A stretch of 64,000 nucleotides of DNA, from the NCBI GenBank assembly GCA_043804695.1, contig JAZDIV010000048.1, forward strand, positions 1 through 64,000. The letters are read 5' to 3'. Positions 57,925-63,789 of this stretch are shown in pieces. Position 1 is the stretch's first letter, and each line of letters opens with the position of its first letter. A program made the translations under genes and the position numbers. The stretch is from PVC group bacterium (GTDB taxonomy: Bacteria > Auribacterota > Erginobacteria > Erginobacterales > Erginobacteraceae). The notes beneath the pieces were generated by a model. It searched no databases. It saw nothing but the letters and a program-made list of their open reading frames with translations, and had not been told where the DNA came from.

Positions 57925-58009
57925 TAATCCCGTCCCCGGTTAACGCCGGCACCAGGTAATCGGAGCCAGCATGCTCACGGCCCCGGCGAGAAATTCGCCG
58001 GGGCTGTTT

Positions 58010-58882
58010 TTATGGAACGGAGCAGCGAATGTCGACATGGTCCCGACGTTCGGCAGTATTCTTCTTCAAGCCCGCGGCGAAATACACCAGCGCCGCCATC
58101 AGAAGCAGATACCCGTATGCATTGAGCAGAACGCTCAACCCGGGGGCTAAAAAGCCTGCACCGATGTCTCCAGTTTTGAGCCACCCATTGATCAACAGCG
58201 AGATTAAAAGCGGGGAACCGGAAAGAACCACTACAAAGGATAAAGTGGAATACAGGTTGGCCCGCACCACCCGGAAACTGTACACGACCGCTTCCACGAT
58301 CCCGGCGCCTTCAACAACCACGCCCGGGTAAGAAAAGACCAGGGCGAACATGAGTGCAACTCTCCCCCAGTTGACCACCAGGAGTATGAGGTAATACATG
58401 ATCCTCTCGCTCGTCAGAGACAGTAAAACTCGCGCTATGGCCGTTGGTATCAGTATTACCGCCGCCTGCACTATCCCGACCCCGAGGAAACGCCAGAAAT
58501 AATGCTTCCCGCTCTCCATGACCGCGGCCAGGCTCCATCCTCCCAGGCCGAGAATAACATCCAGACTTCCCATAATCCCGGCATGAAAAAAGACCAAGAC
58601 CAATCCAAGGCAGACTATAAAGAATACACTCGTCCAGACCGGGAGCCCGGCAACATTAAAAATATACCTGCCGGCCGCACAGAAGATGGCGATACCCAGC
58701 CACAAAATAACCAGGCAGGGATGTGAATGTACCATCCTCAGCGCCTGGATGATGGTCTCACCCCTTGGAGGACCTTCAGGCATTCTTCCGGTCATACCGG
58801 GAGCTTCACCGATTTTCCGTCGTAGCGCTGCCCCTCTGTCTGTCTCATGATCGTTCATTTCAAGGCGAGGCACCCCCGTCAC
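58010..58882 (-). CDS. Multi-pass membrane protein of unknown function
   Basis: About 6 TM segments; YFWRFLG motif; ATGA overlap with the upstream gene. Confidence 0.7.
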   Translation of the reverse strand: MTGVPRLEMNDHETDRGAALRRKIGEAPGMTGRMPEGPPRGETIIQALRMVHSHPCLVILWLGIAIFCAAGRYIFNVAGLPVWTSVFFIVCLGLVLVFFHAGIMGSLDVILGLGGWSLAAVMESGKHYFWRFLGVGIVQAAVILIPTAIARVLLSLTSERIMYYLILLVVNWGRVALMFALVFSYPGVVVEGAGIVEAVVYSFRVVRANLYSTLSFVVVLSGSPLLISLLINGWLKTGDIGAGFLAPGLSVLLNAYGYLLLMAALVYFAAGLKKNTAERRDHVDIRCSVP

Positions 58883-59913
58883 GACCCGGGGGTATTTTCT
58901 TTACCTCTCAGGCTGAAAAGCCTGGACTCGATCATGTCATTCACAACAAGCCTGATCTGGGGATCGTTGGGGTCGAAGCCCCGGTAAACCAGCAGGTCCC
59001 GGGCGATCGAGAGGGCGCGGGACTTTTTCTCCTCCGGGGTAATCCGGGAGGGGGCGACTCCTCCTTTCATCGCCGACCGGGAGGCCTGCTCGGCAGCCTC
59101 CACCGCGGTCTCCGTCAGGCTCTTGATCACCTCGAAAACGAAGTCCCTTCCCTTGACGTCATCGATCAGCCGGGTCCAGATCAGGGTAAACCAGCGCTGA
59201 TAGTGCCGGCCCAGCCAGGGAAGGTTGCTCAGGATAAAATGAAGAATCAGGAGAAGCACAGCCGAGGCGGCGTAGGTACTGACGGTAAGGAAATGAGCGA
59301 CAAAATCCTCCCGGAAAGTCCTCAGGAATGCCGACGCCATATCGGCGAATGATTCATAGCGGGGACGGTCGAGTTCCTCCTTTATCTCGCGGACCTGTTT
59401 GGCCTCCGGCGGTGATCCGTAAAAGAACAGGGAGCCCCCGGCACCGGAGGGATAAATAACCAGCTGATCCGGTTCGATTCCCAGGGAAATCCGGTCGGAG
59501 AGGTTCAGTAACTTTTCCCTCATCGAAGAGCCGCTCAGATGGAGAAGCGGAAGGGGCACCAGTACGGGTGGGCCTTCGGCGGGAGGGTAGAGCCGGTCCA
59601 GGTACTCAGCGACGCGCAGCGCTTCCTCGACCTCGTCCCCCCTCCCCCGCAGGAAGAGCATTCCCTCTTCAGTGCCGAGGATCGGGAGATGAAGGTACTG
59701 CAGGGAAGAGAATATCCCCCAGGTCCGGGCAATGAGATCGAGGGCGCCCTCGATCTGAGCGGGGGTGGCATTGCGGACCACGACCGGGGCTACCGTCCGG
59801 TCATAGGCAGCGGGAGGCTGTCCGACGCCGGCCCGGGCCTCCTCGGGAGGTTGAGAAAAGCCGGCGGCGGCAGAGAAAACAAACCCGAGAATGACACCGG
59901 CAAGGAGCTTCAT
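58879..59913 (-). CDS. Signal peptide + two secretin-N/NolW-like repeats + TM + LL-H holin-like domain
   Basis: Repeats ending LFLRG..DEVEEALRVAEYLD and LFFYGSPPEAKQVREIKEELD; AVEAAEQ...EEKK..A...MIE. Confidence 0.6.
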   Translation of the reverse strand: MKLLAGVILGFVFSAAAGFSQPPEEARAGVGQPPAAYDRTVAPVVVRNATPAQIEGALDLIARTWGIFSSLQYLHLPILGTEEGMLFLRGRGDEVEEALRVAEYLDRLYPPAEGPPVLVPLPLLHLSGSSMREKLLNLSDRISLGIEPDQLVIYPSGAGGSLFFYGSPPEAKQVREIKEELDRPRYESFADMASAFLRTFREDFVAHFLTVSTYAASAVLLLILHFILSNLPWLGRHYQRWFTLIWTRLIDDVKGRDFVFEVIKSLTETAVEAAEQASRSAMKGGVAPSRITPEEKKSRALSIARDLLVYRGFDPNDPQIRLVVNDMIESRLFSLRGKENTPGS

Positions 59914-59916
59914 GAC

Positions 59917-60543
59917 CTATCCTTCCGGGGCCGGGCCGGGAAAATCCTTCTTTAAAATCTTCTTTTCCGCTTCCATGTGACTGAGTTCCCCCTTGAATAT
60001 CTTCCGGTCGGTCTCTTCGGCCGCCAGTTCTTTCTCCAGCCCGGCAACTCTTTTTTCTTCCATCTCCTTCTGCTTCTTCAGCCTGATATCTTCCGCCTTT
60101 TCTTTCTCGAGCCGTTCCTTCAGTTTCCCCGGACCGGGGGTTTTCTTCCCTGCTTTTATTTCCCCGGCACACCTCTCCTGATCGGCGTGAAGCTTACCTT
60201 CCACTTCCTCCAGTTTTGCCGAGATATCTTCGACCTCGGCCTTTTCCTCCCGGAGCTGGCCCTTGAAAGTATTTACTTCCTTCACCGAGAAGGCCAGCTC
60301 TTCATGGAGCCTGCCGTCCAGATCTTCGACCAGCTCCCGGGCCACCGGCCTGAGCCGGTTCAGCTCTGCGGAGTACCTCGCGGCGGTCGCAAGGTATTTC
60401 TTGTGATGGCGACGGTTCCGGCAGTTTGCCGCCAGCTGACGGTACTCCTCCCCCCGGCGATTCATCCGTCGGATCTTCTTCAGGAGTGTGTTTTTACGAA
60501 TAATGTCCGTCTTGATGGCGTTTTCTATTGCAGTGTGATTCAT
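59917..60543 (-). CDS. Highly charged coiled-coil protein
   Basis: E/K-rich heptads; SD GGGGGA. Confidence 0.7.
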   Translation of the reverse strand: MNHTAIENAIKTDIIRKNTLLKKIRRMNRRGEEYRQLAANCRNRRHHKKYLATAARYSAELNRLRPVARELVEDLDGRLHEELAFSVKEVNTFKGQLREEKAEVEDISAKLEEVEGKLHADQERCAGEIKAGKKTPGPGKLKERLEKEKAEDIRLKKQKEMEEKRVAGLEKELAAEETDRKIFKGELSHMEAEKKILKKDFPGPAPEG

Positions 60544-60603: not shown

Positions 60604-61359
60604 TCATTTTTCAAGCTCATTCACATCTGAGTATGTTAAAACTTCCAAGTTGTCATGATAAACCGTGCCCGTCCGGCCGGAATGATGGCCCAGGAGAAGG
60701 GGAAGATGCGACCTGCCGTAGGTCAGGCGTTTGCGGGAATAATACACCAGATCGCCATCAATCCGGAACTCGACAAAGCCGCTGTCTGTAACCAGTATCT
60801 CGTAGGTGTGCCACCCGCCAAGATAATGATCGCGATAGGGCCGCCGGCTGATCTCCAGGTCTCCGTCTTCATCCACCAGGCAGCAGGTGAGAGTGCCTCC
60901 TTCCGGGATGATCCCCCCCGTCCATCCGAGATGGCCGAGGTAGTCGTAGCTCATCCCGACCAGCCAGTCCGGCCAGACACCCTGTAGAAAAGCGTCCGGG
61001 TTCCGGGGGAATCCGAAGGAACCCCCGAAGCAGACGGAACCGCTTCGGCCGGAAATAAATAGATCGCAGCGGACAACCATCCCCGGAGAGAGATGAAAGA
61101 CCCGCTTGCTCAGCAACCCGTTCTTCTCCCCGGCGGCGCCGGTGTCCAGGGCGGGGGCGGGATTGCCGTGACGAGCGTTGATCCGCGGACCGGGCCGAGC
61201 AAAGAAATGCCACTTCTGTTCCGGCTCACCGGAAAAATCGTCATGAAATATCCGGTGCCCGGACGGCGACGCGACGGAGGCCGGCGGGCAGGAGAGAGCG
61301 GAGAGGCAGAGGAGAACAAGCGGGCAGGGAACGATCCTCAACAGGACTGCTCGTCTCAA
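60604..61359 (-). CDS. Exported beta-sandwich (ConA/LamG-like) hypothetical protein
   Basis: Signal-like N-terminus; FHDDFS, WHTYEI, VEFRIDG, YHDNLEV. Confidence 0.55.
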   Translation of the reverse strand: MRRAVLLRIVPCPLVLLCLSALSCPPASVASPSGHRIFHDDFSGEPEQKWHFFARPGPRINARHGNPAPALDTGAAGEKNGLLSKRVFHLSPGMVVRCDLFISGRSGSVCFGGSFGFPRNPDAFLQGVWPDWLVGMSYDYLGHLGWTGGIIPEGGTLTCCLVDEDGDLEISRRPYRDHYLGGWHTYEILVTDSGFVEFRIDGDLVYYSRKRLTYGRSHLPLLLGHHSGRTGTVYHDNLEVLTYSDVNELEK

Positions 61360-61412: not shown

Positions 61413-62066
61413 TTATTCCCTGACCAGTTCCTCCTCCACCTGCGCGATCAGCTTCTTCAGAGTTTCAATCCCCGCCGCGGGAAGAAGCTGAGAAAGCTCA
61501 ACAGTATTTTTCACCGTCCGCAGGGAACCGAGCACTCGTTTCAGCGCCTCCTGCCGCTTCGTTGCCCAGGCTTCCTCGGGATCGAGAGTCGATTCCCGGG
61601 CGGCCTGGAGGAGACTCCGGTACTGGCGGCCGATTTCTTTCGGCCGCATCTCATCATCAAAGACCGCCGAGCGGAGTTTACCGTAATCTTCTTCGGAGAT
61701 CGCCTTTTTGGCCCGGGCCATCCGGAGGACGTTGACGCTCTCATAATCCGGAAGCTTCTCGATCCGGTCTCCATCTTCCAGGAAGGCGGAAAGACTGGCC
61801 GGTTCTTCCCTCTTCAAGAACAGGTACGAGCGGAGGAGCTTGTCCACCGTCTGCTGCCGCAGCTTCAGTTCCCGGGTGCAGTAGCTCTCAAAGGTCGGGA
61901 ACCCCCACTCCCGGAAGGACTGCTTTTTCCCCACCACGCTCACGAACCGGCCCAGTTCCAGCCAGTTTCCCTTGAACTTCCTGACCGCATCCAGCACCTG
62001 GAAACGGAGGCTCTCCGGGTCCAGGTGTTCCATTTTTCCCTCGATCTCGCTGATTGTTCTCGTCAT
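61413..62066 (-). CDS. Conserved-looking alpha-helical hypothetical protein, possibly DNA-binding
   Basis: WLELG...FREWGFPTFESYCTRELKL..TVDKL pattern; SD GGAG. Confidence 0.7.
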   Translation of the reverse strand: MTRTISEIEGKMEHLDPESLRFQVLDAVRKFKGNWLELGRFVSVVGKKQSFREWGFPTFESYCTRELKLRQQTVDKLLRSYLFLKREEPASLSAFLEDGDRIEKLPDYESVNVLRMARAKKAISEEDYGKLRSAVFDDEMRPKEIGRQYRSLLQAARESTLDPEEAWATKRQEALKRVLGSLRTVKNTVELSQLLPAAGIETLKKLIAQVEEELVRE

Positions 62067-62186: not shown

Positions 62187-62807
62187 ATGTCCGGGAATAA
62201 CGAATCGAAGACGGCCCTGACCCGACCGGGCTTTTTCCACCGGAGCCATAAGCCGCTGGCGGCGGCGGTGGCGGTCCTGATTCTCTCCTACGCGCCGGTG
62301 GCTCGTCCGATTCAGTTCTTCCTGCGAACGTCGCTGGGGCCGGAAGGAATGATGCTGTTTGTTCTGCTCATCTTCCTGGCCGGCGGCGTTCTTTTCTTTT
62401 CCTCCTCCCGTCTCTGGAAACTTCCGTTGAAGAATATCATTCTTACGATCACGGTCTTTCTGGCCGGGCTTATTTACTCCTTCACCCTCCGCCTCCCCGA
62501 AGAAAGAATCCACCTGGTGCAGTTCGGACTGCTGGGCCTGCTGGCCTGTCCCAGCCTGAAGGGGCAGGCCTCCGGTGGATGGAGATGGCTCTGGAAGCCG
62601 CTGCTCTTTGTCTCCCTGGTCGGGGCGGCCGATGAAGTTTTTCAGTGGTTCCTGCCGGACCGGTTCTTTGATCTCCGCGACATCCTCTTCAACGCCCTCG
62701 GCGGCGTCTGGGGGATACTGCTTTACATGACGGTGAGGGGGAGAAGCGGTGAAAAGATGAACATCGAACGTTCAACGCATAAAGATACGGTGATCCGTTA
62801 TCAGTAA
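62187..62807 (+). CDS. VanZ-like membrane protein
   Basis: HLVQFGLLG, DEVFQWFLPDRFFDLRDILFN. Confidence 0.8.
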   Translation: MSGNNESKTALTRPGFFHRSHKPLAAAVAVLILSYAPVARPIQFFLRTSLGPEGMMLFVLLIFLAGGVLFFSSSRLWKLPLKNIILTITVFLAGLIYSFTLRLPEERIHLVQFGLLGLLACPSLKGQASGGWRWLWKPLLFVSLVGAADEVFQWFLPDRFFDLRDILFNALGGVWGILLYMTVRGRSGEKMNIERSTHKDTVIRYQ

Positions 62808-62880: not shown

Positions 62881-63789
62881 ATGAAAATAATCTCCTGTAT
62901 CTTGCTCTGGATCTTTTTTCTCCTTCCCACGATCAGGGCGGAAGATAACAGCGCTCTGGAGCTGCATTTCATCGACGTCGGTTACGGGGACGCCATCCTG
63001 ATCAAATCCCCTTCGGGGCGATTCGCCTTGATCGACACCGGGTATCCGGAAGCCGCCGGCCGTGTATCCGCCTACCTCAGGGAGAGGAATGTCGAAACGC
63101 TTGATCACCTGATCATCACCCACCCGCATCCCGACCATCTGGGAGGAGCGGCCGGTCTGCTGAAACAATTCCGGGTTGAGCAAATATACGACAACGGCCA
63201 GAAAATCGATCAATTTGATGAAAGGCTGACCGTGTCCAGGGGCCGAGAATACGAAAGATCGGTCCGGGAACGGGAGTCGTACCGGGTGCTAAAGGCGGGT
63301 GACACGATTCAATGGGATGGGGTCTCCCTGGAAGTCCTCTGGCCCCCGGACACCCGGGCGGGAAGAGACTGGAACGCGAACTCGCTGTCAATCATGCTTT
63401 GCTATGACGGTTTCCGGGCGTTCCTGGCGGCCGACAACAATACGGTCAGCGAACAGGAACTCTTGAAAAAGGGCGAACAGGCCCTGAAAGCCGGCCTTCT
63501 GAAAGTCGGCCACCATGACGCCGGGGACGCCACCGGGCCGGCGTTTCTCCGCGCGGTTTCCCCCCGCTGGGCGGTCGTCTCGGTCGGAGAGAGCCCCTGG
63601 AACTATCCCTCGCCGGCGGTGCTGCGCCGGCTGGAGGGTCAGTGCGAGCGGGTCTTCCGGACCGACCGGGACGGGAACATTATCGTCATGATTCTCCCTT
63701 CCGGGGAAATCCGGACAATAAAGACCAGCCGGAGTAGTGTGCCCGTATGGCACTGCATCGATACCGGCTCCGGCATTGTTCAAAATTAA
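62881..63789 (+). CDS. Exported ComEC/Rec2-type MBL hydrolase
   Basis: FIDVGYGDA, LIDTG, THPHPDHLGG, LKVGHH, RTDRDG. Confidence 0.88.
   Translation: MKIISCILLWIFFLLPTIRAEDNSALELHFIDVGYGDAILIKSPSGRFALIDTGYPEAAGRVSAYLRERNVETLDHLIITHPHPDHLGGAAGLLKQFRVEQIYDNGQKIDQFDERLTVSRGREYERSVRERESYRVLKAGDTIQWDGVSLEVLWPPDTRAGRDWNANSLSIMLCYDGFRAFLAADNNTVSEQELLKKGEQALKAGLLKVGHHDAGDATGPAFLRAVSPRWAVVSVGESPWNYPSPAVLRRLEGQCERVFRTDRDGNIIVMILPSGEIRTIKTSRSSVPVWHCIDTGSGIVQN

Follow-up and report, generated by a model that had tools for sequence, protein, structure and literature searches.

What kind of protein is encoded by the gene at positions 58879..59913 on the reverse strand of contig JAZDIV010000048.1 (NCBI assembly GCA_043804695.1), and what might it do in the cell envelope? 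The contig comes from a PVC group bacterium assigned to the Auribacterota, a phylum in which we know of no cultured member; by the window we mean the whole stretch of DNA analysed, its first 64,000 nucleotides. A preliminary description had seen in this gene an apparent fusion of secretin N-domain-like repeats to a holin-like domain. The N domains of secretins are familiar components of pores in the outer membrane, and holins of the LL-H type are familiar as small proteins of phage lysis. We find it well supported that the protein is a chimera, in which two periplasmic Secretin_N domains are joined to a module of one transmembrane helix and a three-helix cytoplasmic domain. Both periplasmic domains are almost certainly homologues of Secretin_N, the N1/N3-type ring-building domains of secretins, while the cytoplasmic domain at the tail probably shares a remote ancestry with its counterpart in LL-H-type phage holins.

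The gene (P0001) is an ATG-started open reading frame of 344 amino-acid residues plus a stop codon, supported by its translation and by a conserved family. All of the features of the protein given below lie on the reverse strand. A Shine–Dalgarno-like motif, GGAAGGA, can be read from the sequence 6 nucleotides upstream of the ATG (59920..59926). Every peptide quoted in the preliminary description is present in the translation: VVVRNATPAQIEGAL...AEYLD corresponds to residues 44–106, LPLLHLSGSSMREKL...KEELD to residues 121–182, and AVEAAEQ... and ...MIESRL belong to the tail. Hydropathy analysis of the whole protein gives two hydrophobic segments only, at residues 1–22 and 204–236. The first of these (59848..59913), which is modelled as a helix over residues 2–17 and has a mean column conservation of 0.42, is probably a Sec signal peptide that would be cleaved. 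There is no conserved cysteine after the leader, and the protein is therefore not a lipoprotein.

The AlphaFold2 model, calculated from an alignment of 28 sequences, has a mean predicted local distance difference test (pLDDT) score of 79.3 and a predicted template modelling (pTM) score of 0.36. In the model the leader helix is followed by a disordered linker and by two domains of βαββα topology (residues 39–108 and 117–181). The first domain (residues 37–108, 59590..59805) is built of strand 39–44, helix 51–65, strands 72–76 and 85–91 and helix 92–108, and the second (residues 117–185, 59359..59565) of strand 117–121, helix 128–142, strands 151–154 and 161–166 and helix 168–181. Local alignment of one repeat with the other scores 41, compared with 22.6 ± 4.1 for shuffled sequences, and only two of 2000 shuffles reach 41. 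A conserved juxtamembrane helix then runs into the single transmembrane helix (approximately residues 205–231); together they occupy residues 186–231 (59221..59358), as indicated by the model, hydropathy and conservation, and appear in the model as one long membrane-crossing helix, 189–229. The C-terminal half is all-helical, with further helices at 235–283, 293–310 and 318–339. Just inside the membrane lies an amphipathic helix, PWLG..YQRWFTLIWTRLI..DVKGRDF (residues 232–262, 59128..59220), delineated by conservation, alignment and the model, and the LL-H-type holin-like helical domain covers residues 251–339 (58897..59163). The protein is predicted to be bitopic, with a periplasmic N-terminus and a cytoplasmic C-terminus. 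Translation, hydropathy, repeat alignment and the model together confirm the layout first proposed, namely a signal peptide, two repeats of about 65 residues, one transmembrane helix and the quoted tail.

A word-seeded search identified 31 proteins, including the target, at E<=1e-3. Most are unnamed proteins of 311–361 residues and four are shorter (215–277 residues); a taxonomic source is available for only two of the 31 (Candidatus Auribacterota and Proteobacteria). Alignment of 28 of them gives a mean column identity of 63% with 44 invariant columns. Conservation peaks in the amphipathic stretch, residues 232–262, where the mean is 0.86 and 15 of the 31 columns are conserved at >=90%; the transmembrane helix has a mean column conservation of 0.77, and the leader and linkers have the lowest values. 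Among reference genomes the gene was located at 11 loci, including metagenome-assembled genomes of Candidatus Euphemobacter frigidus, Candidatus Erginobacter occultus and 'PVC group bacterium'. Of 41 related genomes searched whole, 17 were found to carry it. It is present in every genome searched from the four families of the order (8/8, 1/1, 2/2 and 2/2 which, with the genome of origin, make 14 for the order in all) and in 3/3 genomes of one family beyond the order, and was not found in the 24 searched genomes from 13 other families. There is a single copy per genome; two matches in one genome (G008) reflect a gene cut at the ends of two contigs. The reading frame is broken in one genome of the 17 and intact in the other 16: the orthologue in a member of the distant family (G023:C165:1143-2048) contains one in-frame TGA, which may reflect an error of sequencing, a pseudogene or recoding. 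Gene order is conserved across the order, with the gene lying in a syntenic block that includes radC, xerD, a response regulator and the CCA enzyme. That the gene is vertically inherited, single-copy and chromosomal is well supported.

The assignment of the two periplasmic domains was examined at the level of the family and of the fold. The Pfam profile for Secretin_N, PF03958, is matched by 22 of the 28 aligned members at E<=1 (best 3.4e-7), and four of the 31 proteins carry a precomputed PF03958 label. We note, as a point against the assignment, that the target itself scores only 16 bits (E 0.014) on this profile, over residues 145–185 of the second domain, which is under the gathering cut-off of 28.2 bits. 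A family profile was then run with HMMER against 1.84 billion cluster representatives at E<=1e-3 and returned 83 proteins, of which 19 are family members or fragments and 64 are others. The 64 align only at profile positions 17–211, with a best E of 1.1e-14, and all ten of those that were scanned carry Secretin_N above the Pfam cut-off, in up to 39 copies; two of the ten have further secretin-associated domains, P0049 a Secretin barrel and N0, and P0073 AMIN, STN and N0. These nearest non-family relatives (P0048–P0111) are giants of up to 4808 residues built of many Secretin_N copies: P0049 has 3735 residues with 39 such stretches, N0 and the Secretin barrel, P0048 has 2199 residues with 28 stretches and P0052 has 1794 residues with 18.

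Structural comparisons gave the same answer. At E<=1e-3 Foldseek gave three matches in the PDB, all to N regions of secretins (GspD, PDB entry 3ezj, twice, and PDB entry 8co1), with an E of 4.2e-4 for GspD. When the model was compared with 48,161 chains using VIA-align, the leading ranks were held by EscC, GspD, Deinococcus PilQ, a GspD–GspC complex and Vibrio PilQ. The Z scores were 8.1 for the EscC N domain (3gr5_A; root-mean-square deviation 2.2 Å over 67 residues), 7.8 for GspD, 7.5 for PilQ (6w6m_A) and 6.8 for pIV (7ofh_A); a Z near 8 is not exceptional alone, but here agrees with the sequence evidence. By sequence profile the best match in the PDB was Deinococcus PilQ, which at E 0.046 is not significant. 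The Pfam search found no match to the Secretin barrel (PF00263) in the target at E<=1. The original suggestions that the repeats fit Secretin_N/NolW and that the protein has no secretin barrel are therefore both upheld, the former strongly by the family Pfam matches, the profile search, Foldseek and VIA-align.

The evidence on the tail is more divided. As a reference we used ORF107 of phage LL-H, the gene directly ahead of the muramidase gene, which matches PF09682 with an E of 8e-10. When the 28 aligned family members were scanned against PHROG profiles, the three most-matched families were all holins: phrog_608 with 21 members (best 2.9e-5), phrog_2609 with 13 (best 2.1e-4) and phrog_6918 with five (best 1.2e-3). 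ORF107 itself gives 1.5e-26 on phrog_2609, 4.2e-5 on phrog_608 and 2.9e-5 on phrog_6918, and the best family members are therefore as near to phrog_608 as is the founding holin. The Pfam holin profile PF09682 is matched by six of the 28, with a best E of 0.0061. In six-frame searches of whole genomes with phrog_608 the top three matches (6.1e-5, 7.9e-4 and 1.7e-3) fall on the tails of orthologues, and in the genome of origin the target is the sole match (E 0.14, at 58945–59151); as a protein, the target scores 0.15 and 0.38 on PHROG holins.

Structure searches point in the same direction. With the tail folded alone (pLDDT 80.6), the top 20 matches in BFVD comprise nine named holins and 11 unnamed proteins, with no other named function, and with the full-length model an LL-H holin stands at rank 2 among viral structures. 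The ESM Atlas yields small viral proteins with feature scores of 0.79–0.81, under the 0.9 bar; a 'Holin family protein' cluster heads its structural neighbours, with a TM score of 0.56 by that row. In the second of two profile–profile alignments with hhalign, residues 252–338 are collinear, end to end, with holin positions 39–109 over 71 columns. The two consensus sequences agree in 20 of these 71 columns, compared with 1–9 in twelve shifted registers; high agreement is partly expected because the register was optimized. Six strongly conserved positions have an identical residue in both families (L, A, E, K, A and G).

Other results weigh against a holin assignment. The target has no PF09682 match at E<=1 in the Pfam search, nor at E<=10 in the search of its own genome. 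The hhalign comparisons with two LL-H alignments are not significant (P values of 0.06 and 0.021, probabilities of 0.9% and 2.2%). Hidden Markov models (HMMs) made from Lactobacillus LL-H holins give best E values of 1.0 and 14 among 23,129 sequences, and the second, broader one ranks unrelated frames above the family. The conserved columns of the family and of the LL-H holins co-locate no more than expected by chance (P 0.30), and a phrog_608 match at E<=0.1 falls on the gene in only four of the 17 genomes that hold it. BFVD yields no match at E<=1e-3, and the fold search of the PDB with the tail alone gives generic helical rows, with Z<=7.1 and no holin structure; simple helical bundles match many structures. 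A tblastn search of 50,697 phage records with the tail returned nothing beyond chance, its 28 matches, at E=3, all being to Brucella-phage tailspikes. Finally, the holin transmembrane segment, which is the hole-making part of a holin, lies outside the aligned part, and in the family a conserved amphipathic insert of 22 residues stands between the transmembrane helix and the shared domain. The reading of the tail as an LL-H holin thus survives in part: a remote likeness of the cytoplasmic domain is seen by several methods, whereas the transmembrane helix is not shared and several of the tests are not significant.

The component families are known, and it is their combination in one protein that would be new. 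The profile search of cluster representatives showed the full architecture only in the family of about 340 residues. Three short matches (124, 141 and 79 residues) were considered as stand-alone forms of the tail and rejected, as they look like fragments of family members. Judged by titles and the starts of abstracts, none of the listed papers on holins, secretins and fusion describes such a protein; nothing was found that joins a ring-building motif to a holin, and the literature found on Phage_holin_6_1 concerns a prophage.

We tentatively propose, with somewhat less than even confidence, that the protein is a self-assembling inner-membrane platform or gate and not a lysis protein. It would be a cellular, domesticated protein that self-assembles in the inner membrane through its conserved transmembrane helix and amphipathic segment and through its ring-building domains, so that secretin-type domains would form a ring or platform facing the periplasm, with the holin-type helical domain facing the cytoplasm. 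In this view the protein would serve the envelope as a fixed platform or gate and would not make a lethal hole. The proposal is made because both parental modules homo-oligomerize in their native settings, where secretin N domains form rings and holins assemble in the membrane, and because the design, by analogy, copies that of SctJ/PrgK. Against it, no neighbour is conserved through the whole family at the 11 loci, so that the context yields no function, and each of the two secretin systems in the genome comes with its own partners in the inner membrane. These systems are a complete type II secretion system (T2SS)-like operon on another contig, in which a T2SSC+PDZ protein (GspC) lies just before GspD, and a pilus-type cluster with PilM, PilO and the second secretin. 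The simple form of the idea that the protein supplies a missing GspC or PilP is ruled out by these partners. The prediction of a homo-oligomer from three copies of residues 37–344 scored 0.26, against a mark of 0.42, and counts neither way. A bolder version, which we consider a long shot, is that a domesticated holin is templated by secretin-type ring domains into a non-lethal inner-membrane portal of fixed size that stacks under an outer-membrane secretin.

Three other explanations need to be weighed against the platform proposal. The protein might assist a secretin machine or act as its sensor, with its Secretin_N domains docking onto or replacing the N rings of the T2SS GspD or the pilus secretin; the tail would then serve for interaction or signalling in the cytoplasm, and its resemblance to holins would be convergent or irrelevant. 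This we regard as unlikely, though deserving of attention, as it builds on our firmest result, the Secretin_N homology, and as solved secretin structures show N domains packed against others of their kind. Secretins are encoded in all 41 of the related genomes, and the genome of origin has two complete copies and one fragment (on contigs C2, C62 and C116), which suits an accessory role; set beside a gene found in 17 of the same 41 genomes, however, this ubiquity gives no co-occurrence signal. The gene adjoins a secretin operon at none of the 11 loci, and the partners already present in both clusters and the recurrence of the holin signal across several methods also argue against such a role. 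The family HMM matches only the target among the 23,101 frames of its own genome at E<=10, a result that likewise speaks against an accessory and also rules out the candidate origin of the domains as a recent copy of those in the genome's own secretins.

The protein could instead be a working holin in cellular use, making inner-membrane holes for programmed lysis, for release of vesicles or DNA or for non-lytic export of the type 10 kind, with the Secretin_N domains sensing the envelope or controlling how large the hole is or when it opens. The hole-forming activity of LL-H-family proteins is mostly annotation-based, which counts against this. The resemblance of the tail to LL-H holins extends to topology, with a single transmembrane helix, N-terminus out and C-terminus in (predicted for the target and seen in the alignment for LL-H), and bacterial secretion systems derived from holins are reported (PMC4259817, PMC13284979 and PMC10847048). 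What is common to both, however, is the cytoplasmic domain and not the transmembrane helix, and the highly conserved 22-residue insert separates the two. Nor does any of the 18+4 neighbours scanned encode an endolysin, a peptidoglycan hydrolase or a spanin, and the 18 flanking genes include none for phage structure. Use as a working holin appears quite improbable to us. That the gene is a mere relic, whether of a prophage lysis gene in decay or of a secretin cut short, and has no function of its own, is scarcely credible: conservation is full-length over two family-level groups, with the invariant columns noted above, the gene is single-copy and syntenic with its frame almost always intact, its ribosome-binding site is good and there is no phage context. 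The phage and secretin ancestry of the domains and the want of a conserved partner gene are what a relic would have in its favour.

The surroundings of the gene are those of a bacterial chromosome. The 18 flanking genes that were scanned are housekeeping genes, including rpsA, cmk, aromatic amino-acid genes, scpAB, trpS and genes for the CCA enzyme and a response regulator, together with a xerD-type recombinase, a metallo-β-lactamase (MBL) hydrolase, radC, a STAS protein and vanZ. The only one with a 'phage' name is an XerC/D-type integrase, and the preliminary description was right that no phage genes lie nearby. The target has no NCBIfam or PADLOC match, and so nothing points to a defence system. 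The nearest neighbours share its strand. A multi-pass membrane protein (58010..58882, reverse), which matches DUF7847 below threshold and whose GTG overlaps the stop codon of the target, is present at only one of the 11 related loci, and a 208-residue coiled-coil protein (59917..60543, reverse), whose stop codon lies 3 nucleotides ahead of the target ATG, at two. The exported 251-residue protein that follows (60604..61359, reverse) lies directly upstream of the target at seven of the 11; it has no Pfam match, and the ESM Atlas relates it to LamG-like jelly-roll proteins, with structural neighbours that include N-terminal parts of OmpA-family and peptidoglycan-binding proteins. A conserved 217-residue protein (61413–62066, reverse) lies upstream of the target at eight of the 11 loci, the most distant ones included, and has no Pfam, NCBIfam, PADLOC or PDB match; PDB sequence searches with neighbour proteins found nothing. 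The string of genes that contains the target ends against a convergent STAS gene, and the 14-bp GC-rich hairpin followed by T's that lies between them (57977–58007) is likely to be a two-way terminator.

Some further observations concern genes in this region or the secretin loci. The VanZ-like gene and the signal-peptide MBL-hydrolase gene, which are separate in the window (62187–62807 and 62881–63789), match a single frame of 481 residues in a distant relative (L012:2900–4345, reverse strand), which suggests a fusion there. Immediately before the T2SS-like operon (L027, G000:C2, 6721–10865) comes a zf-HC2 anti-sigma-like gene, and before that gene is a 203-residue frame resembling an extracytoplasmic function (ECF) sigma factor; the operon may have its own sigma/anti-sigma regulation. 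The second secretin cluster (L028, G000:C62, 9503–15180) encodes a 623-residue PilM with a long C-terminal extension, possibly a PilM–PilN fusion, as well as PilO, an unassigned protein of 187 residues where PilP would be expected and, next to the T2SSE ATPase, a ParA/MinD-like ATPase. For metagenome-assembled genomes of Auribacterota, type IV pili are reported and an outer membrane is drawn in one account (PMC9324843).

The case shows secretin and holin modules reused outside their textbook settings and joined in one conserved chromosomal inner-membrane protein. At 344 residues it is a small, defined candidate for a new envelope assembly and, because the domain is kept under selection without a lysis cassette, the family offers a route to the function of the LL-H holin cytoplasmic domain. 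A ring or gate, if real, would represent a portal of a new kind in the inner membrane; if the bolder portal version held, there would be an export route through two membranes with an inner gate of phage-holin ancestry, which would connect secretion based on holins (type 10) with secretion based on secretins. Pending a function or an assembly, the interest is real but moderate.

Comparison with known systems indicates where the protein shares features with each of them and where it departs. It has the same tandem periplasmic fold of about 65–70 residues as the secretins GspD (PDB entries 3ezj and 5wq8), EscC (3gr5), InvG, PilQ (6w6m and 8co1) and f1 pIV (7ofh), but lacks their N0 domain, C-terminal β-barrel and outer-membrane part, and is anchored in the inner membrane by a transmembrane helix that follows the domains. 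With the LL-H holins (PF09682, Phage_holin_6_1; phrog_2609, phrog_608 and phrog_6918) it shares one transmembrane helix followed by a charged helical cytoplasmic domain, with collinear similarity over about 70 residues. In contrast to these small proteins of about 100–150 residues, it is three times longer, with a 185-residue periplasmic extension and the 22-residue insert after a transmembrane helix that cannot be aligned with theirs; it is also chromosomal and syntenic, has no endolysin neighbour and has a Pfam score below the cut-off. GspC/PilP-type connectors are likewise bitopic inner-membrane proteins and reach the periplasmic domains of secretins, but GspC has the opposite topology, with its transmembrane helix at the N-terminus, and different domains (HR+PDZ).

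The closest parallel in design is with the ring proteins SctJ/PrgK/EscJ (and also FliF and SpoIIIAG/AH), which consist of a leader, two periplasmic α/β ring-building domains, one transmembrane helix and a cytoplasmic tail. The target differs from SctJ in having no PF01514 match at E<=1, no conserved lipobox cysteine and no injectisome genes among the scanned neighbours. Its nearest fold matches are secretin N domains, and no SctJ chain is found among the best 50 VIA-align rows, an absence that still leaves room for an SctJ fold. As the overall design is shared, the SctJ/PrgK/EscJ rings would, by analogy, be the best working model for this protein.

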